Positions 4,935 to 42,330 of a DNA stretch of 64,000 nt are shown one piece after another. The translations under genes and the position numbers were made by a program. Under the pieces are notes generated by a model. The model made no database searches. It was given only the letters and a program-made list of their open reading frames with translations, and was not told where the DNA came from. The DNA lies in the IMG/VR virus record IMGVR_UViG_3300028888_001628, positions 1 to 64,000 of that record; one strand, given 5' to 3'. The DNA comes from a virus. Lineage: Duplodnaviria; Caudoviricetes. How positions within the stretch are numbered: position 1 is the stretch's first letter; each line of letters starts with the position of its first letter.

Positions 4935-4942
4935 TTTACTTT

Positions 4943-4977
4943 AAATCACCAGAAAAAAATTTTTTCTGGTGATTTTT
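4943..4977 (+). terminator. Intrinsic terminator
   Basis: AAATCACCAGAAAAA/TTTTTCTGGTGATTT plus T tail. Confidence 0.7.
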
Positions 4978-4978
4978 G

Positions 4979-5007
4979 TTTACATATGAAATAGAAAGTT
5001 TTATAGT
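4979..5007 (+). promoter_or_regulatory. Sigma70-like promoter of second sugar module
   Basis: TTTACA-17 nt-TATAGT. Confidence 0.6.
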
Positions 5008-5052
5008 TATATTTGTAAGTTGGGATTACCTATTTTATTGAGAGGTAAGCAA

Positions 5053-14150: not shown

Positions 14151-14351
14151 TTAAAAGTGCATAATAGTATTACTAAACCATTCACCATCAACAAGCGTAA
14201 GCTTATCTACATGGCCACAATAATACATACTAGGCAGTGAATGAGTATAGCGAACAACCTCTTTAATAGAGGTAAATTCAATTTCATAATCAATGGAATC
14301 CTCTTTATGATTATGATCATTTACGTAAACAATATATCGAGTGTTGCTCAT
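14151..14351 (-). CDS. Hypothetical early protein
   Basis: AGGAG RBS, promoter and leader upstream. Confidence 0.65.
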   Translation of the reverse strand: MSNTRYIVYVNDHNHKEDSIDYEIEFTSIKEVVRYTHSLPSMYYCGHVDKLTLVDGEWFSNTIMHF

Positions 14352-14371
14352 ATTAGAATCTCCTGCTCAAT

Positions 14372-14436
14372 AATTGGAATGGCCCATTCCATCCAATTTA
14401 TGAATTACTTATAAACTTATCCATCATAAATGTAAA
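14372..14436 (-). promoter_or_regulatory. Promoter plus conserved leader hairpin (leftward copy)
   Basis: Minus strand TTTACA-17-TATAAG, TCATAAA, stem with AATGGG loop. Confidence 0.75.
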
Positions 14437-14466
14437 TAGAAAAGTTAACAAAGTTTGTGATTTTTA

Positions 14467-14514
14467 TGTATCATGATTGTATCACATCTGTATAATTTGT
14501 ATCATTCAGTATAA
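14467..14514. repeat. Phased TGTAT(C/A)A direct repeats between divergent promoters
   Basis: Copies at 14467, 14478, 14489, 14498 and AGTATAA at 14508. Confidence 0.55.
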
Positions 14515-14567
14515 GAATTTATGACATAGTTTGTTACACAAAAATTTCACATACTTTAAAATTTTTG

Positions 14568-14630
14568 TTTACAAGTACGCATAATTTTGTTATAAGTAAT
14601 TCATAAATTAAATGAGATGGGCTCATTTAA
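14568..14630 (+). promoter_or_regulatory. Promoter plus conserved leader hairpin
   Basis: TTTACA-17-TATAAG, TCATAAA, TTAAATGAG-ATGGG-CTCATTTAA. Confidence 0.8.
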
Positions 14631-14650
14631 TAAATATATAGGAGTTAGGT

Positions 14651-14983
14651 ATGGTAAAATTTACAGTGGCAAGCCCATTACGTAAAAAGTTAAATTCATT
14701 CACTGATTTAGGAGCACTGCTCAGCTATTATGCTGGGCACAACCCTCGTAAGTTCCTTAGTGAGGATGAATTTTTTGCACCATTAGCAAACACAAGTGAT
14801 ACACTGTACACAATGGCTAATGAAAATAATATGAGTGAAAGTGATATGCGTTTATGGGTATGGGGTCACCTTGATAAGAATGTTAAATGTTCCATTATAA
14901 CTAATGAAGGCCCATCTGGTTGGCCAATCGTTAGTGTTAGATGCTGTGATAAAACATTTACATTTGATTGGGCTGACAAATAA
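14651..14983 (+). CDS. Hypothetical early protein
   Basis: Promoter, GGAG RBS, downstream terminator; GPSGWP motif. Confidence 0.7.
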   Translation: MVKFTVASPLRKKLNSFTDLGALLSYYAGHNPRKFLSEDEFFAPLANTSDTLYTMANENNMSESDMRLWVWGHLDKNVKCSIITNEGPSGWPIVSVRCCDKTFTFDWADK

Positions 14984-15050
14984 TTAAAATGGGTGGTAAT
15001 GCCGCCCATTTATTGTGCCTAAAATTTTGCACTTTAGCTTAAAATTTTTG

Positions 15051-15116
15051 TTTACAAGTATTTAAATCTGTATTATAATACATTCATAAATTAAATGGAA
15101 AATGGGTTCCATTTAA
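15051..15116 (+). promoter_or_regulatory. Promoter plus conserved leader hairpin
   Basis: TTTACA-17-TATAAT, TCATAAA, TTAAATGGAA-AATGGG-TTCCATTTAA. Confidence 0.85.
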
Positions 15117-15135
15117 ACTCAAAAGAGGTAAACAT

Positions 15136-15789
15136 ATGCAAGAAAGTAATGAACAAACAAAAGTAACCTGTCTTGAACAAGGTGTTACCTATCACAATGA
15201 AAAGCAACAATGTTCAAAAATGATGAACGCGGTTGCTAAACAATGTTCACAAGAAACTAATATTGATAAAAAGATAATAATGAAAGTTAAAGACTATCTT
15301 CATTATAGAGGTCGAGGATGGGGTGATGATTGTTTATTAAAATCAGAAGAACACGAAGAGTACCCAGATCGTGTGTCACCTACTTTTCGCAATCTTGTAG
15401 AGATAATCAAAAATTCTTATGAAACAGGTAAAGAGGATTTACTTAATGTTTATCTTGAGGCGGTAAAAGAACGTGGTATAACAATAAGCATTGACACTTC
15501 TAAATTTGAACTTCCAAATGATGATACAAAACATAAAGTTGCACTTGCAATAAATCAAATGGATCCTCTGCAATGTGTTATTTGTGAAAAGAATGACTAT
15601 ATGAATGATGTACTTGCTGAAGAAGCAGAAAACATAAATCTTTCACCTAAGAACAAATACAAGAAGATAGTTCAGTTAGCCGCAGCAAAACAAGCAGGTA
15701 AAGATATTGATGATAAGATGCAAGATGAGTACCTTGACATTGAAATGTTCACAAATGGCCTTGAGACAGTGAATAACAATATTCATTAG
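15136..15789 (+). CDS. Hypothetical protein, possibly tandem T4 DsbA/GapR-like DNA-binding domains
   Basis: Two similar helical segments (MNAVAKQCSQETNIDKK; MNDVLAEEAENINLSPKNK); function weakly supported. Confidence 0.45.
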   Translation: MQESNEQTKVTCLEQGVTYHNEKQQCSKMMNAVAKQCSQETNIDKKIIMKVKDYLHYRGRGWGDDCLLKSEEHEEYPDRVSPTFRNLVEIIKNSYETGKEDLLNVYLEAVKERGITISIDTSKFELPNDDTKHKVALAINQMDPLQCVICEKNDYMNDVLAEEAENINLSPKNKYKKIVQLAAAKQAGKDIDDKMQDEYLDIEMFTNGLETVNNNIH

Positions 15790-15841
15790 TTCTACAGTAA
15801 TTCACTGAGTTGATAAAATAACACGCTCAGTGAATTTTTTG

Positions 15842-15907
15842 TTTACAAGTATTTAAATATGTATTATAAATAATTCATAAATTAAATGGAAAATGGATTC
15901 CATTTAA
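15842..15907 (+). promoter_or_regulatory. Promoter plus conserved leader hairpin
   Basis: TTTACA-17-TATAAA, TCATAAA, stem with AATGGA loop. Confidence 0.85.
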
Positions 15908-15926
15908 TAACATAGGAGATTTAAAA

Positions 15927-16043
15927 ATGACAAAGGAAGATATTCAAGGTTTCGCTCTTATACCAGTTGCTTTTATGGGATGTGTTTATCATGAAGAACT
16001 TGCTTCTTTTGTCGGTACAATTCTTCACATGATCTTAGGGTGA
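15927..16043 (+). CDS. 38-aa hydrophobic small protein (absent from ORF track)
   Basis: AGGAG RBS; MTKEDIQGFALIPVAFMGCVYHEELASFVGTILHMILG; first ORF after promoter. Confidence 0.7.
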   Translation: MTKEDIQGFALIPVAFMGCVYHEELASFVGTILHMILG

Positions 16044-16051
16044 GGTAAATT

Positions 16052-16243
16052 ATGTTTAGGTTATTTTATTTCACAAGTAACACTGCATCAGATCTTGTTT
16101 ATTCAAGCAACGATCTTGCACCCTGTTTAGAGTTTATAAAGACACATTCTCTTGTATGTCAACAATGTTTAATTGTTTCTCCAAATAACAGAAGAATAAC
16201 CTTTAACGAATATAACCAATTAGTCTTTGGAAACGCAGCTTAA
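16052..16243 (+). CDS. Hypothetical protein
   Basis: GAGGT RBS. Confidence 0.65.
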   Translation: MFRLFYFTSNTASDLVYSSNDLAPCLEFIKTHSLVCQQCLIVSPNNRRITFNEYNQLVFGNAA

Positions 16244-16253
16244 AAGTATTATT

Positions 16254-16628
16254 ATGAACAAAGTCGTATACAATAACAATTACGGTGGATTTTCAATTTC
16301 ATTAAAAGCTGTTGAGTGGCTTGAAGCAAATTGTAAAGATAATGAACTTCGTGATTTTATTAAATCACTACGTTCAGCTGGCAAAGAATATTCGTTTTCA
16401 TCAAAAGATGAATGTCTTTGTTATGATGTATCTGGTTGGTTTGAGGATAAACGGCACCATAAAGATTTAGTTGCTGTGGTTGAAGCTTTGGGTGATGAAG
16501 CAAACGGTTCATGTGCTCAACTAAATATTAGAAAGATCTGTGGTAATCAGTATCGTATTGAAGAATACGATGGCGCAGAAGATGTTATTACACCTAAAGA
16601 TGACAACGAATGGATTGTTATTAATTAA
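16254..16628 (+). CDS. Conserved phage hypothetical protein
   Basis: KVVYN..YGGFSIS, RHHKDLVAVVE, IEEYDGAE. Confidence 0.75.
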   Translation: MNKVVYNNNYGGFSISLKAVEWLEANCKDNELRDFIKSLRSAGKEYSFSSKDECLCYDVSGWFEDKRHHKDLVAVVEALGDEANGSCAQLNIRKICGNQYRIEEYDGAEDVITPKDDNEWIVIN

Positions 16629-16653
16629 TAATTTACATAGATGGAGATTTACT

Positions 16654-17079
16654 ATGAATGACACAAAGAAAGAACCTATTAATCTTCGTGCACTTGATGA
16701 TGTTTCATGTGCTAATGTAGTTACATCTAGACAGATAAGAAAGCTTATTAGAAAATTTCCTAATATGGAATACATGAATATTGACTGCTGGGTTCACGGT
16801 GGGCACTATATTAAATTTAAATCAGGTGATAATAGATTTGCTTGGTACTGTGACACTAAAGAATCTCACTTTGAAGGTTGTGAGAAGATTAAATCAGACG
16901 ATGAAGATCTTACTACTGAAGAATTAAATAAACTTGTTGTATGCACATATAGATCCATGTGTGATCAGCAAAATGGTGTAGATGTTTCAGATACACCTGA
17001 AGATATTTTAGCTTTTGCTGAATCTAGACTTCAAGAACTTTTGAGAGAAGAGAGTGTTCAATCTCTAGAAAATAATTAA
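16654..17079 (+). CDS. Hypothetical protein
   Basis: GGAG RBS before MNDTKK. Confidence 0.65.
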   Translation: MNDTKKEPINLRALDDVSCANVVTSRQIRKLIRKFPNMEYMNIDCWVHGGHYIKFKSGDNRFAWYCDTKESHFEGCEKIKSDDEDLTTEELNKLVVCTYRSMCDQQNGVDVSDTPEDILAFAESRLQELLREESVQSLENN

Positions 17080-17087
17080 ACTTTTTA

Positions 17088-17155
17088 TTTATAGAACTCT
17101 ACTTCTGTATTATAACGCTCTCATAAAATAAATGGAATAATGTAATTCCCTTTAA
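17088..17155 (+). promoter_or_regulatory. Degenerate copy of promoter plus leader element
   Basis: TTTATA-17-TATAAC, TCATAAA, GGAAT-AATGTA-ATTCC. Confidence 0.55.
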
Positions 17156-17172
17156 CATAATAAGGTGATTAT

Positions 17173-17610
17173 ATGAAATGGCATAAAGGAACTGACTTAC
17201 CAAACATTGAGACTGATACACAATTATGTGTAGTTCAGTATAAATATCCAATCCCTGATTATAGAACTGTTGATGATTGGTTGTTTGAAACACATTATGA
17301 AGTTATGCTGTTTCATAAAGATACACAATCATTCTCAAAGCCTGAAGATACAAAAGGTGTTAATGGTTTACGAAAAGAACTTGTAGTACGTTGGGCTTAT
17401 ATAGAAGAAGATGATGACGTTTATCAAGAGCAAGATGCTTTGACAGCAATATATGCTGCAATTACTCATGTTAGAGAGTTATTTGATTGCTTACTTACAG
17501 ATGGTATTTGCTGTGGAAAAGAATATCGCGATCTTGTAGGATTAAATGAACTTGACACATTGCAGGAAAAAGTCTCAAAAAGAATTTTGCACCTTGACAA
17601 TTTGGTATAA
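17173..17610 (+). CDS. Hypothetical protein (DUF551-like N-terminus)
   Basis: MKWH...LP...VVRWAYI pattern. Confidence 0.6.
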   Translation: MKWHKGTDLPNIETDTQLCVVQYKYPIPDYRTVDDWLFETHYEVMLFHKDTQSFSKPEDTKGVNGLRKELVVRWAYIEEDDDVYQEQDALTAIYAAITHVRELFDCLLTDGICCGKEYRDLVGLNELDTLQEKVSKRILHLDNLV

Positions 17611-17613
17611 GTT

Positions 17614-17892
17614 ATGAAAACATCTGGGTATCTCATTGTAGTTACTGCTCATTATAGAGATGATTCGTCTCTTGATCTTGAGACACGTGAGTGTAAAGAT
17701 AAAGCTGATGTTACTGGTAAGCTTGCTATATGTAAACTAGAATATGAATCAGCTTTATCAAAAGAATTATTTAAAGATGATTTTATTGAAATAAGCATTA
17801 GAGCGTTCGAACTTAATACATACTTTATTCCAAAACTTGTTTCGTCTTTCAGTTTAGAGGGCGGTGCGTGGGGTGGTTGGTCAATCATTTAA
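17614..17892 (+). CDS. Hypothetical protein
   Basis: Operon packing. Confidence 0.6.
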   Translation: MKTSGYLIVVTAHYRDDSSLDLETRECKDKADVTGKLAICKLEYESALSKELFKDDFIEISIRAFELNTYFIPKLVSSFSLEGGAWGGWSII

Positions 17893-18025
17893 TTTGGAGT
17901 ATATAGTAATATAAATTAATATTCCTTAAGAAATAATAACTACAATAGCGGATCAAATTAACAAAGATCCGCTATGTTTGTATATAATCTATATTTAAAC
18001 TACTTAATCACAAGGTACTATAATT

Positions 18026-18415
18026 ATGAAGTCAAGCTATTACGAATTAGACAATGGAAAACAGATCGTCTACTATATTTACAAATACAATCTAAATTTC
18101 TCTTATGGAAATGCAGCAAAATATCTGTGTCGTGCAGGACGAAAACAAAACAATTCAGCAGAGAGTGACTTAAACAAAGCACTTGTTTATATTATTTCAT
18201 CTGACAAAGAAATTCCTCTCGCTAAACGCCTTCTCATGCGAGCTATTAACACTATTAAGTTTAATGATAAAGTACAGTTTGCTGAACACCATTTACAAGA
18301 GATTCTTTGCTCTATTATAAAATATGATGATCCAATAAAAATTGCAAGAATGATAGTGTCTTATATGAAGTTTAGAGGGATCAACGTCAGTGATGAGTTT
18401 AAACTATTTGAGTAG
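18026..18415 (+). CDS. DUF3310-like protein
   Basis: FSYGNAAKYLCRAGRK...DLNKALVYI. Confidence 0.75.
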   Translation: MKSSYYELDNGKQIVYYIYKYNLNFSYGNAAKYLCRAGRKQNNSAESDLNKALVYIISSDKEIPLAKRLLMRAINTIKFNDKVQFAEHHLQEILCSIIKYDDPIKIARMIVSYMKFRGINVSDEFKLFE

Positions 18416-18423
18416 AGGTATTT

Positions 18424-18975
18424 ATGTCAGTACAGCCACGTGTGTTTCCAAAACTATTTATAGGACAGGCTGCTATTTCATTTAAATCATTTCTCAAAAA
18501 GAAGAATTTAGATTATAATATAAATTACATTTCGACAAAAGAAGATTTAGAATCTATTATAGACATTTATAGTGCTTATAAAAACTATACACTTCCAGTT
18601 ATAATAAGTGATATTTCATATCTTGATAGTAGAGGGCAGTCGCTTCTTCTGAAATTTATGGATGACACGAATCTAAATATTATCTTGCTTGCAAGTAGAG
18701 ATAATATATTAGACACTATAATTTCTAGAGTGAAAGAATTCAGAAAGTTCTACGTATTTAATAGAGGTGATAAAGCAGGTTTTATAAATATCGGTAAAGC
18801 ACGAGAAATGTTTAATAATGACATTGGTTCGTTTGATGAAGATACTTCTTATGAGGATAAGTTACTTCAATATAACAAATATAATCCGCTACTATCTTAT
18901 GATGATTTACTTGTAAGATCGTATAATTCTGCTGATCGTAAAAAGTTACTTAATATTATAGAGTACAGTCAATGA
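18424..18975 (+). CDS. Clamp-loader delta-prime-like subunit
   Basis: QSLLLKFMDD...ILDTIISR AAA+ segment without Walker A. Confidence 0.65.
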   Translation: MSVQPRVFPKLFIGQAAISFKSFLKKKNLDYNINYISTKEDLESIIDIYSAYKNYTLPVIISDISYLDSRGQSLLLKFMDDTNLNIILLASRDNILDTIISRVKEFRKFYVFNRGDKAGFINIGKAREMFNNDIGSFDEDTSYEDKLLQYNKYNPLLSYDDLLVRSYNSADRKKLLNIIEYSQ

Positions 18976-19682
18976 ATAACAATCTTCTTTTAAGAAAGCG
19001 AATAAATTTTCCAAAACAGTATATAGAATTTCTACATTTCATTCATCCTCAATTTGAAATAGTTGAAGACATAGATTCGTATGATAATGGTATCTCTAAT
19101 GGAATTATCTATACTGGGAATTATTCAAACGATCTTATCGACAAACTAAATCGTTTTACCGATAATTGGATTATAGTTAATGCACATCACTTTGATGAAG
19201 ATCTCACCACTAATGACGGTTTAGTAAAAAACTTACTTCCACTACATTATATTAGAGCAAAGAATTTAAATAAAGATGGTTTTTCAATATATAATAATAT
19301 AAGTTATGATTTGCTTCTTGAGAAAGTAAAGAACTGTCTTATTAGTAATACGCAGTTGATTTTAGATGATTCTTCAGATGTATCTGTTTATAGTTTGTTT
19401 TCATCTATATTAGGTACACAAGATATTCTAAACAATGAATTTTTTAATCTTGTTAATAAAGACAACGTATCATTAGTAACCTCGTCTGTTTTAACATTTC
19501 TTAATAAAGTACAGACGCAAAACATTCGCGGATCATCTGCGCATTATGCGAATTTAATAATACAGTCGAATCGAAGATATGGAAAGAGAATTAAACAAGC
19601 GATTAGTAAATTTATAAAGTCAAAGTCAAACAAAGAAGTGTCTCTTTATAATTTATTAACAGATTTAAACAGGGTAAAGTGA
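18972..19682 (+). CDS. Hypothetical protein, possible clamp-loader accessory subunit
   Basis: Coupled to preceding gene; function from context only. Confidence 0.45.
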   Translation: MNNNLLLRKRINFPKQYIEFLHFIHPQFEIVEDIDSYDNGISNGIIYTGNYSNDLIDKLNRFTDNWIIVNAHHFDEDLTTNDGLVKNLLPLHYIRAKNLNKDGFSIYNNISYDLLLEKVKNCLISNTQLILDDSSDVSVYSLFSSILGTQDILNNEFFNLVNKDNVSLVTSSVLTFLNKVQTQNIRGSSAHYANLIIQSNRRYGKRIKQAISKFIKSKSNKEVSLYNLLTDLNRVK

Positions 19683-19684
19683 TT

Positions 19685-20119
19685 ATGACTAGACCAGTTG
19701 GATTGGAAAGTATTTATAAGTATATTTGCTCTTTAATAGAATCTATGGAAGTTATCCCGACAGCAGATAAACTTCCTGACTATCGAGAACTTCGAAGTTC
19801 ACCTGATAAATTCTATGAAATGTTTTCAGAAGCTACTTATAAATACAATGTTATTTGTGATTCATTACAAAAACTTCAGTACTCAAATGCAATGATTGTA
19901 AAAGCATTAAATGAATTAATGGGTGCTGAATGTAAAGAATCTTATAACGTTAAAAATCAGTACATTAAATCGTTTACCGGAATTAAGTCAGAGTGTAACG
20001 CACTTATTTCAGGTTATGAAACAGCGAAAGCATCTGCTGAATCAATAGTTAAGTTTTTTAATTCAGCGCAGTATATCATCTGCAGCAATCGCTTCGAAAG
20101 TACGTCAGCAAATTATTAA
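19685..20119 (+). CDS. Hypothetical helical protein (UvsY-like size)
   Basis: Coiled-coil character only. Confidence 0.5.
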   Translation: MTRPVGLESIYKYICSLIESMEVIPTADKLPDYRELRSSPDKFYEMFSEATYKYNVICDSLQKLQYSNAMIVKALNELMGAECKESYNVKNQYIKSFTGIKSECNALISGYETAKASAESIVKFFNSAQYIICSNRFESTSANY

Positions 20120-20224
20120 TAATATAAGACCTCTATAATAATAGAATAATTATAGAGGTTTGTTTGTCTATCTATAATAGAACTTTTCTATTGAAAATAA
20201 TTTTAGCTTAGAGATAAATTTTTG

Positions 20225-20290
20225 TTTACAAAACTAATTAGTTTAGTTATAATACACTCATAAATTAAATGGAAAATGGGTTCCATTTAA
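20225..20290 (+). promoter_or_regulatory. Promoter plus conserved leader hairpin
   Basis: TTTACA-17-TATAAT, TCATAAA, hairpin identical to 15091-15116. Confidence 0.85.
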
Positions 20291-20312
20291 TCATACAAGA
20301 AAGGTTAAAGAT

Positions 20313-20654
20313 ATGACAAACAGCGAAAAGCTCAATAAAACATTTCAAATTCGCAACTTCGTTGAATCATGGTTCTTCGATGAATTTTGTGCTAATAAAT
20401 ACAATTACTCACAAGATGAACTTGTAGATCATATCTGGAGCTTTTTCTCATACAGTAACGATATTGATTTAGAATCATGTTGCAAAGACGCTTCTGATAA
20501 AGGTTTTATTGTAGATAGTAATGATATTAAAAATTATCTTGCAGATTTTGCAGGTGATGTTGTGTTTAATATGTATGAAGATGACTTACTTCCAGATATG
20601 TATGCAAGTATGATTGAAGAGGATAAATATGACAAACGTTTTCTCAATAGTTAA
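20313..20654 (+). CDS. Acidic hypothetical early protein
   Basis: First ORF after promoter; D/E and aromatic rich. Confidence 0.65.
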   Translation: MTNSEKLNKTFQIRNFVESWFFDEFCANKYNYSQDELVDHIWSFFSYSNDIDLESCCKDASDKGFIVDSNDIKNYLADFAGDVVFNMYEDDLLPDMYASMIEEDKYDKRFLNS

Positions 20655-41462: not shown

Positions 41463-41535
41463 CATTTAAAAGTATCTATTGTATATCAAATAATAGTAAC
41501 TGTGTACACAATTATAATATAGTGGAGAATTTAGT

Positions 41536-42330
41536 ATGGCGTTTTCAGAAAATTTATTATTACCTTCTAGAGGTATCATTTATCGTAGAAGTGACTTTGA
41601 CGGCAATGTAAAAGTAAAACCATTTACCACAAAAGCGTATAAATCATTACTTGCAAGTAACGCATCTGACTCAGGTTTAAAACAGTTTATAGACACTTGT
41701 TTGGAAGATTGCCCAGTTAAAGCTAAAGACATGAATCAAGAGGACCTTCTAGCTATTCTGTTTAAAGCTAGAACAATGACACTTGGTAACACTTTAAAGA
41801 TGCAGGTAAAGTGCCCAGAATGTAAACACATTGAAGATCTAGAATGGGATCTTAACAGCATTGAGATAAATTATTTATTTGCTGAAAATTATCCTATTGT
41901 AGTAACATTACCTAGCGGAAAAGAAATTAGAGTAAGATTCCCAACTGGTGCTGATATCAATAAAGCTAAACAAGAAGCTGATCGTCGAGCTGGTATCTTT
42001 AAAAAGCAAGCATCAGATTTCATCCATATTTATACTACAGTGTCTTTGATAGATGTAGATAACATGGACATTATTGAGAAGGCTGATTGGTATGAAAATC
42101 TTTCACCACATGATGCAATCTATATCGACGAAATTTTCTCAGAAATGAATGATACATTTGGTGTTAAAATGACACGAGAAGTTCATTGTTCTGTTTGTGA
42201 TAAATTATTCACAACATACATAGACATCTCTTCTGATTTTTTTCGCCCCGACAGACACATCTCTCTCGGCATTACAAGCAAGGCAGGAAATTTGGCAGGC
42301 ACTACTGAAGAACCAAGTATTTCTGAGTAA
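41536..42330 (+). CDS. Baseplate hub/tail assembly chaperone (T4 gp26-like)
   Basis: LPSRG.Y, KPFT, CPEC, LPSG, RFPT, CSVC, DFFRP. Confidence 0.75.
   Translation: MAFSENLLLPSRGIIYRRSDFDGNVKVKPFTTKAYKSLLASNASDSGLKQFIDTCLEDCPVKAKDMNQEDLLAILFKARTMTLGNTLKMQVKCPECKHIEDLEWDLNSIEINYLFAENYPIVVTLPSGKEIRVRFPTGADINKAKQEADRRAGIFKKQASDFIHIYTTVSLIDVDNMDIIEKADWYENLSPHDAIYIDEIFSEMNDTFGVKMTREVHCSVCDKLFTTYIDISSDFFRPDRHISLGITSKAGNLAGTTEEPSISE

Follow-up and report, generated by a model that had tools for sequence, protein, structure and literature searches.

We describe a recurrent early-gene cassette in an uncultured gut or rumen phage, represented here by the first 64 kb (the window) of a 155,974-bp IMG/VR phage contig (IMGVR_UViG_3300028888_001628; 31.7% G+C, rated 68% complete). 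Each cassette consists of a host-type promoter, a CATAAA box at the predicted transcription start and a leader hairpin directly downstream; with it, this phage and its relatives are predicted to begin nearly all of their early messages. The hairpin stands at a fixed distance from the promoter whatever its loop, its stem covaries among copies and related phages, and a loop of the AUGG type is strongly tied to a ribosome-binding site (RBS) that follows. The explanation we favor, with confidence modestly better than even, is that the hairpin protects the 5' terminus and that a putative factor recognizes its conserved apex, which is linked to the RBS.

In this explanation, the element would be a reusable module of early-gene control, in which a host sigma-70/sigma-A-type promoter starts RNA at the A of CATAAA and the initial 30 nt of the transcript form a hairpin starting 3-5 nt from the 5' end. 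Two layers of action are proposed. In the first, any stable hairpin at this place would shield the 5' end of the early transcript from decay of the RppH/RNase E or RNase J type. In the second, the apex, 5'-GGA(A)-(A)AUGGR-(U)UCC-3', at a median of 18 nt before the start codon, would be the site of a trans-acting factor, which may be an early or injected phage protein or a host RNA-binding protein. Such a factor would set the translation or lifetime of the whole early regulon jointly, for example in early-gene shut-off.

Cassette layout and hairpin structure

All six cassettes of the window share one layout (Table 1): TTTACA (TTTATA in a decayed copy), 17 bp, TATAAN, 5 nt, CATAAA and then a hairpin of 23-28 nt. 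The original prediction had listed copies at 14372(-), 14608, 15091, 15882 and 20265, as well as a degenerate one with a TTTATA -35 box near 17130. All six were found as placed, and the last is confirmed as a decayed copy (cassette 5), whose hairpin is absent from the minimum-energy fold (z -1.2). A regular expression for the promoter and box (TT[TG]A[CT]A-N16-18-TA[TAG]AAN-N2-8-CATAAA) applied to the whole contig identified 17 sites, with a hairpin after every one: six in the window (14436(-), 14568, 15051, 15842, 17088 and 20225) and eleven outside it, on the minus strand at 141.8-155.8 kb. A covariance model of 48 positions and 10 pairs recovered 20 copies in the contig, all within 14.3-20.3 kb or 141.8-155.8 kb and none elsewhere. 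TCATAAA alone is not enriched (39 matches vs 34.9 expected); a 22-nt string spanning the box and the hairpin's first half is, with 3 exact matches vs 0.02 expected. No intercistronic or promoter-distant copies of the apex motif were detected in this genome.

The promoter is close to the host sigma-70/sigma-A consensus: an A/T-rich tract precedes TTTACA or TTGACA, and TATAAN follows after a 17-bp spacer. At 7 nt past the -10 hexamer, the expected start position is occupied by the A of CATAAA. Phage T5 has 12 sites of the form TATAAT-N5-CATAAA, compared to one for the reversed control, in the same register and followed, as here, by TT. The sequence upstream of these sites resembles T5 early promoters, and in the classic papers on these promoters T5 transcripts reportedly begin at the A of CATAAA. 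By this analogy, TCATAAA is most simply regarded as the start region of a strong host-polymerase promoter class common to T5 early promoters, and not as the distinct box that it had been taken for; the companion claim, that the shared element marks a class of early host-sigma-type promoters, is supported. Not every sigma-70-like promoter of the phage has the leader element: a TTTACA-17-TATAGT promoter at ~4977 (window 4940-5020), located between a terminator and a sugar-gene module, possesses neither the CATAAA box nor a hairpin.

The 14-21 kb region had no megablast match among INPHARED phages, and the best deposited-phage kin of the terminase are Vibrio siphophage terminases, only ~29% identical. 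A terminase search of IMG/VR identified nine loci at 72-84% identity. A large relative, G003 (204 kb, 95% complete, terminase 84% identical), has the same promoter, CATAAA box and hairpin but different stems. With a 124-aa early protein (16254-16628) as bait, we retrieved syntenic early regions from seven further contigs, whose sample names indicate cattle, ruminant and pig gut studies. The covariance model, a comparison across related phages that had been proposed from the start, matches G003 (25 copies), two partial relatives (one copy each) and the seven syntenic contigs, and the stems of these copies covary. Besides this phage and G003, eight gut or rumen phage contigs hold further copies. 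A strict promoter-plus-apex pattern search found the 204-kb relative only, and an exact 32-nt motif scan of IMG/VR found nothing; seven loci added by a looser apex pattern were rejected, all being chance matches within coding sequence. Rfam yielded no relevant match at E<=1 (14-21 kb) or E<=0.1 (140.5-156 kb), tRNAs being the only hits, and the motif was not found in literature searches. Without an Rfam family, the element is a variant of known leader-hairpin and translational-operator themes.

As originally noted, the stems differ among copies while the loop is kept as (A)AUGG(G/A), and the stem variants quoted at that time are correct. Taken by itself, the window offers three stem types as a basis for covariation; the strong statistics need 52 distinct copies from 10 phages and are upper bounds, because the alignments were fitted to the covariance model and the copies share descent. 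In this set, 88.4% of cells form standard pairs, 8 of the 10 pairs show double-sided compensatory changes, and none of 500 shuffles reached any of these measures. Pairing fell to 20-65% when the 3' partner was slid, and a 45-copy set gave the same outcome. The mismatch tally is 18 G-U vs 10 A-C. The lower stem occurs as UUAA/UUAA, AUGA/UCAU or UUGG/CCAA. The upper stem, AUGGA/UCCAU, is nearly invariant across copies and is wholly replaced, with compensation, in several of them (AUGAG/CUCAU, AGGGAAU/AUUCCCU, ACGG/CCGU, AGAGG/CCUCU). Stems are 9-11 bp long, with dG of -8 to -15 kcal/mol, and an RNAfold scan independent of the covariance model recovers the same hairpins. The loop is asymmetric, (A)AUGGR always being in the transcription sense, and the apex columns are as information-rich as the -35 and -10 hexamers. 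Between orthologous cassettes that precede orthologous genes in this phage and its relatives (147451(-) and L026:19915; 144667(-) and L025:7427; 155750(-) and L026:1959; terminases 72-84% identical), leader stems and promoter spacers have diverged and AUGG is kept.

We read the element as an RNA hairpin because of the stem covariation with its G-U changes, the asymmetric loop in a fixed sense and the spacing of the repeated AUGGA unit, which is 5 nt in G003 and 7 nt in this phage. Taken at the level of sequence, these data support a covarying, strand-specific element of the predicted transcribed leader. An improbable alternative is a DNA operator, that is, an inverted repeat at +5 to +30 at which a dimeric phage repressor stops early transcription, perhaps binding the RNA as well, like Aca2. 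A site just past the start is the classic position for a repressor roadblock, the inner half-sites ATGGA/TCCAT are almost invariant, and Aca-type helix-turn-helix (HTH) proteins bind both promoter DNA and the hairpins that phage early operons have in their 5' UTR (untranslated region). However, a DNA-reading protein does not require the compensatory and G-U changes of the outer stem, the centre of the repeat is asymmetric and orientation-fixed, and the shift in ATGGA spacing between phages is awkward for a DNA dimer but easy for an RNA loop. In addition, there is no conserved second repeat inside the promoter and no HTH_3 match in the 68%-complete contig. The proposal of a protein-binding RNA or DNA hairpin of an early regulon thus retains its RNA form, with which the type of covariation agrees, while the DNA operator is disfavored.

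The loop and the ribosome-binding site

All fetched loci were scanned, in a model-free manner, for a promoter, a start box and the best local hairpin. Loops containing UGG (or CGGA/AGGA) were classed as AUGG-type, and an open reading frame (ORF) was counted if a Shine-Dalgarno (SD) sequence and >=30 codons lay 10-25 nt downstream. In essentially all units, those with unrelated loops included, the hairpin begins 8-12 nt past the -10 hexamer, and in nearly all of them the single-stranded tail from the predicted 5' end (the A of CATAAA) is 3-5 nt long. An ORF is next in 37 of the 43 units with AUGG-type loops (6 lack one), and no gene is next in 31 of the 34 with other loops (3 have an ORF; Fisher p = 3e-12). 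Removing seven doubtful promoter matches, which lowers the number of other loops without an ORF from 31 to 24, leaves p = 3e-10. The start codon lies 10-25 nt from the hairpin (median 18, standard deviation 3), and the SD, of the AGGAG type, 5-10 nt past the hairpin and ~17-25 nt from the loop. The original prediction correctly recognized a shared hairpin with a conserved loop but missed this tie of the AUGG loop to the following RBS.

Non-AUGG hairpins follow the upstream members of tandem promoter arrays, at 100-125 bp spacing; locus L061 has three such units upstream of the gene-proximal one and L060 has two. In G003 they also precede tRNA genes, and in this genome no hairpin follows the promoter of the tRNA cluster (146143, minus strand). 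Arrays comprising two to four complete promoters, each with a 5' hairpin, are found at L061:6804-7260, L060:9336-9660, L059:8970-9165 and L025:11508-11710, and in these relatives the AUGG loop and the gene occur at the last promoter only. The upstream hairpins of L061 end in U-rich tracts and resemble weak terminators; these units may yield abundant very short RNAs or serve as polymerase sinks.

A hairpin that is bound to the start site and indifferent to its loop looks like a 5'-end protective structure, since shielding would need only the stem and its distance from the start, and these are kept whatever the loop. The 5' stabilizer, one of the options offered originally, is consistent with the constant placement of the hairpin, no more than ~5 nt from the predicted 5' end. 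The apex, kept only beside an RBS and at a narrow distance from it, suggests a second, message-specific role. The second role would be superfluous if the hairpin were a 5' stabilizer or purely structural and AUGG were kept through duplication, recombination or gene conversion and not by any reader, an alternative to which we assign a minor but real share of probability. Some 25-30 units with unrelated loops indeed have a hairpin at the same promoter distance, and sub-families of cassettes with identical -35/-10 spacers at distant sites (20225(+) and 155789(-); also 15051, 15842, 152217 and 151964) suggest copying; the cassettes are kin by descent and probably exchange by recombination. Copying alone, however, does not accord with the strong association of loop type with the RBS, with the retention of AUGG in orthologous cassettes despite diverged stems and spacers, or with the information content of the apex columns, which matches that of the promoter hexamers.

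Because the genes that follow the cassettes are mutually unrelated (no BLASTP pair at 1e-3), the repeat is not a by-product of gene duplication. Recombination could conceivably be its purpose: in what we consider the least probable of the explanations, the 90-bp cassettes are modules like the PeSL (promoter-early stem-loop) elements of T4-type phages, homology patches that shuffle early ORFans, and the hairpin is incidental. The cassettes do border ORFans that are unrelated to one another, in two early regions of variable content and immediately downstream of terminators, and early gene content varies between relatives. Nevertheless, such a module leaves the fixed leader position, stem covariation, loop conservation and RBS link unexplained, and PeSL stem-loops are variable G/C-rich terminators, mostly upstream of the promoter. 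Shuffling of early genes by the cassette repeats is likely a side effect and is compatible with a protective hairpin carrying a recognition site.

Two classes of RNA-binding system named in the original prediction fared poorly as readers of the apex. The first, a host CsrA/RsmA-type protein, is unlikely. Its dimer would bridge the GG(A) of the loop and the GGA of the SD ~17-25 nt further on, which would repress translation or, as in flhDC, protect the 5' end. Some loops, AUGGAU, ACGGAU and AAGGAU among them, look like the hairpin-presented SELEX core ARGGAU, and the second GGA, in the SD, falls within the bridging range of 10-63 nt (PMC7652899), which is a weak criterion, as most SDs contain GGA. 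However, GGA is 100% conserved in CsrA ligands (PMC7652899) and is present in 21 of our 37 gene-proximal loops (57%), the others having GGG (eight), GGU (seven) or GGC (one). Here U is favored before GG, as opposed to a purine in the SELEX consensus, and the 9-11 bp stems contrast with <=4 bp in SELEX hairpins. The 68%-complete contig has no match to CsrA (PF02599).

The second, in which the hairpin would be a nut/boxB-like or put-like signal for antitermination or processivity and would load a factor onto RNA polymerase at each of the early promoters, is very improbable. A promoter-proximal RNA hairpin with a conserved loop would suit this role, as would the terminator-like hairpins between early units, where read-through could give delayed-early expression. 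Yet boxA is missing, the hairpin does not present a GNRA-like pentaloop on a stem of 5 bp, and the genome has 20 sites, each unit with its own promoter and terminator. Moreover, the AUGG loop tracks the following RBS and not downstream terminators, and the motif is lacking from the tRNA units and from the upstream members of tandem promoters, where elongation is needed as well. A partial resemblance to boxA, in one copy only and inside the 3' arm of the stem, was rejected.

Pfam and PHROGs searches of ~50 early ORFs detected DUF3310, a weak clamp-loader-like match, RNA ligase 1, GATase_4, Amidoligase_2 and GGACT, and neither a nucleic-acid-binding regulator nor a Pfam HTH domain. A search of the contig for T4 RegA gave no match and is uninformative, as its control matched nowhere either. 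The 124-aa early protein belongs to phrog_16527, has >150 metagenomic homologues, is 86-87% identical in relatives whose terminases are 77-84% identical, and has an invariant HH-D-L-A-V-E-L-G core. As a candidate binder it provided no functional hint (AlphaFold pLDDT 87, no PDB fold at E<=0.001), and a host search in which species genomes were scanned with it returned only distant matches in unrelated metagenome-assembled genomes. Two other ideas were rejected. An anti-loop sponge or antisense RNA is not indicated, YCCAU(U) being unclustered both in non-coding gaps and genome-wide. A mini-ORF in the loop or the 5' arm, or a mimic of a start codon there, would have frames and lengths that disagree from copy to copy, and the loop variants include ACGG and AAGG.

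Several points weigh against a protective hairpin with an RBS-linked apex. The copies are related and not independent, so the shuffle and Fisher statistics overstate the evidence, and the split between loop classes could be due in part to redundant upstream copies having decayed instead of to any positive role of the loop. At its fifth position the loop varies (A 57%, G 22%, U 19%), which is lax for a site recognized by its sequence. The 68%-complete contig yielded no candidate binding protein, and ~50 early ORFs lack an informative domain. The start site is a prediction made only from the geometry of the promoter and the parallel with T5. In a more specific and distinctly tentative form of the same reading, the AUGG apex would be the operator of a regulon-wide RNA-protein switch, with a dedicated phage protein, early or virion-injected, reading the loop beside the RBS and jointly timing the translation or decay of ~20 early messages throughout a large clade of gut and rumen phages with hypermodified DNA.

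Very little is known of how large uncultured phages control their early genes. The promoter, start box and hairpin form a compact and readily recognized signature of a whole early regulon in a widespread gut and rumen clade, so that genes for host takeover and anti-defence can be annotated with it. The division into a 5' hairpin independent of its loop and an AUGG apex tied to the RBS constitutes a testable prediction of two separable RNA functions; the binding factor, if it exists, would represent a new master switch at the post-transcriptional level. With its built-in leader, the cassette could also serve as a ready strong expression module.

Early genes, terminators and neighbouring features

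Cassette genes are mostly ORFans, with the exception of an RNA ligase 1 homologue and a GATase/amidoligase/GGACT set, and their content is of the typical early or anti-defence type. Cassettes drive the T4 Rnl1-like RNA ligase gene and the GATase_4 and Amidoligase_2 pair, and the gene for GGACT (gamma-glutamyl cyclotransferase-like) is nearby (Table 1); these are candidates for tRNA-repair and peptide or DNA-modification functions.

Table 1. Cassettes of the window, associated terminator-like hairpins and annotated early genes elsewhere in the contig
Feature	Position	Strand	Description
Cassette 1	14349..14436	-	divergent, reads left; -35 TTTACA 14431-14436; -10 TATAAG 14408-14413; CATAAA 14397-14402
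Cassette 1 hairpin	14374-14396	-	TTGGATGG/AATGGG/CCATTCCAA; covariance model 44 bits, E 2e-6
Cassette 1 gene	ATG at 14351	-	SD AGGAG; 66-aa ORF
Cassette 2	14568..14653	+	-35 14568-14573; -10 TATAAG 14591-14596; CATAAA 14602-14607
Cassette 2 hairpin	14608-14630	+	TTAAATGAG/ATGGG/CTCATTTAA; 53.5 bits; dG -8.9, z -2.9
Cassette 2 gene	ATG at 14651	+	SD AGGAG; 110-aa ORFan
Terminator-like hairpin with U-rich tail	14987..15016	+	ends unit 2, directly before cassette 3; dG -16.2, z -3.3
Cassette 3	15051..15138	+	-35 15051-15056; -10 TATAAT 15074-15079; predicted start A 15086 inside CATAAA
Cassette 3 hairpin	15091-15116	+	loop AATGGG; dG -11, z -3.0
Cassette 3 gene	ATG at 15136	+	217-aa protein, 72% identical in the 204-kb relative
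Terminator-like hairpin, then UUUUUU	15799..15840	+	ends unit 3; dG -14.4, z -3.6
Cassette 4	15842..15929	+	-35 15842-15847; -10 TATAAA 15865-15870; CATAAA 15876-15881
Cassette 4 hairpin	15882-15907	+	loop AATGGA; 54.6 bits
Cassette 4 gene	ATG at 15927	+	first of the operon containing the highly conserved 124-aa gene 16254-16628
Cassette 5, decayed	17088..17175	+	-35 TTTATA; -10 TATAAC 17111-17116; CATAAA 17122-17127; ATG 17173
Cassette 5 hairpin, weak	~17129-17155	+	loop AATGTA, one mismatch; 34 bits, E 4e-4
Terminator-like hairpin with UUUGUUUGU	20127..20170	+	ends the 18026-20119 operon, before cassette 6; dG -14.4, z -3.4
Cassette 6	20225..20315	+	-35 20225-20230; -10 TATAAT 20248-20253; CATAAA 20259-20264
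Cassette 6 hairpin	20265-20290	+	loop AATGGG; 51.8 bits
Cassette 6 gene	ATG at 20313	+	113-aa ORFan
GGACT gene	142740-143429	-	outside the window
Rnl1-like gene	150052-151074	-	outside the window
GATase_4 and Amidoligase_2 genes	152797-154540	-	outside the window

Terminator-like hairpins end early units immediately 5' of the next promoter, and the T-run of the one before cassette 4 runs into the A/T-rich upstream element of that cassette. The arms of the terminator before cassette 3 (AAAUGGGUGG/CCGCCCAUUU) echo the AAUGGG loop motif of the leader hairpins, which may be coincidence.

Between the divergent early promoters (window 14440-14560) there are TGTATCA/TGATACA repeats that are kept in relatives. 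Loci of the relatives (L056:5579-5660, L057:9256-9330, L058:5957-6040 and L028 at ~15893(-)) have three GATACA copies after a hairpin-less TTGACA-17-TATAAT promoter.

A tRNA cluster is located within the early region at 144817-146051 of the contig (L024:4318-5552, - strand), with genes for Ser, Trp, Arg-UCU, Ile-UAU and Tyr and one more detected by Rfam; for one gene of the cluster, ARAGORN gives a four-base anticodon (agtt). In G003, 16 tRNA genes and a tmRNA gene (tag ANDDIELAIAA) lie among early promoter units at L025:3033-6708 (- strand).

Comparison with known systems

The T5 early promoters share with the cassettes the TATAAT-N5-CATAAATT start box and the A/T-rich upstream tract, as in the PN25-type TATAATAGATTCATAAATTTGAG at T5 63086, but the -35 element is TTGCTT-like in T5 and TTTACA here, and T5 leaders mostly reach the SD directly, with a 5' hairpin in 1 of 12. 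In T5 (NC_005859, ~41530-41585, - strand; L051), one TATAAT-N5-CATAAA promoter is followed by a 13-bp 5'-terminal hairpin, ATAAATTAGAGAG...CTCTCTAATTTAT.

Stabilizers at the 5' terminus are familiar from the E. coli ompA leader and from B. subtilis and its phage SP82, with a rule for the distance of the hairpin from the 5' end. As in those leaders, the hairpin here lies a few nucleotides from the (predicted) 5' end, is bound to the start site and not to the gene, and can dispense with loop identity in part of its copies. It differs in being regulon-wide and clade-conserved, with a sequence-conserved apex that tracks the RBS. A phage precedent for a 5' hairpin stabilizer is the T4 gene 32 leader, as cited in PMC8948821.

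Like the cassettes, PeSL elements are repeated units in which an A/T-rich tract and an early promoter of the sigma-70-like type are combined with a stem-loop and an SD, before ORFans in plastic early regions. Their stem-loops, however, are G/C-rich terminators, variable and mostly upstream of or overlapping the promoter (PMC2839356, PMC4122927), whereas the hairpin described here is A/U-rich, lacks a U-tract, is fixed inside the predicted transcript and has a specific loop, the terminator being a separate structure upstream. In lambda-type nut sites, boxA stands 5' of a short hairpin with a GNRA-like pentaloop; the cassettes have an (A)AUGGR loop on a 9-11 bp stem and no conserved boxA. Such sites go with an N-like arginine-rich antiterminator from the first early gene; no domain of that kind was recognized among the early ORFs here, and no search aimed at it was made. 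Hairpins bound by CsrA/RsmA (SELEX RUACARGGAUGU; the ACGGAU loop of hcnA) likewise present GG in a loop of 5-6 nt, with a second GGA in the SD, but here GGA occurs in 57%, GG is preceded by U in place of a purine, and stems are both long and stable.

Among documented systems, the nearest is that of the acr-aca hairpins bound by Aca1 and Aca2. According to PMC13551039, which summarises Birkholz et al. 2024, Aca1 and Aca2 bind a hairpin that starts right after the transcription start of phage acr-aca operons, and Aca2 blocks the ribosome. The Aca 5' UTR motifs share with our element a covarying stem right after the start (here predicted) and a conserved distance to the start codon, and one regulator is predicted to control several neighbouring anti-defence operons, an arrangement we liken to the cassettes. 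The cassettes differ in that an HTH_3 search of the contig revealed no aca-like HTH gene, the promoter has no matching inverted repeat (its spacers are not conserved among cassettes), the apex bears an AUGG motif, and there are 20 or more sites per genome as opposed to 1-3 for Aca. For the second layer, the nearest functional model is the T4 RegA regulon, in which one factor silences many early mRNAs at their initiation regions, although RegA sites are unstructured, AU-rich and overlap the AUG, unlike the hairpin here. If the regulon switch is real, it would parallel T4 RegA, but with structured RNA as the target, and would extend control of the Aca2 kind to the scale of a genome.

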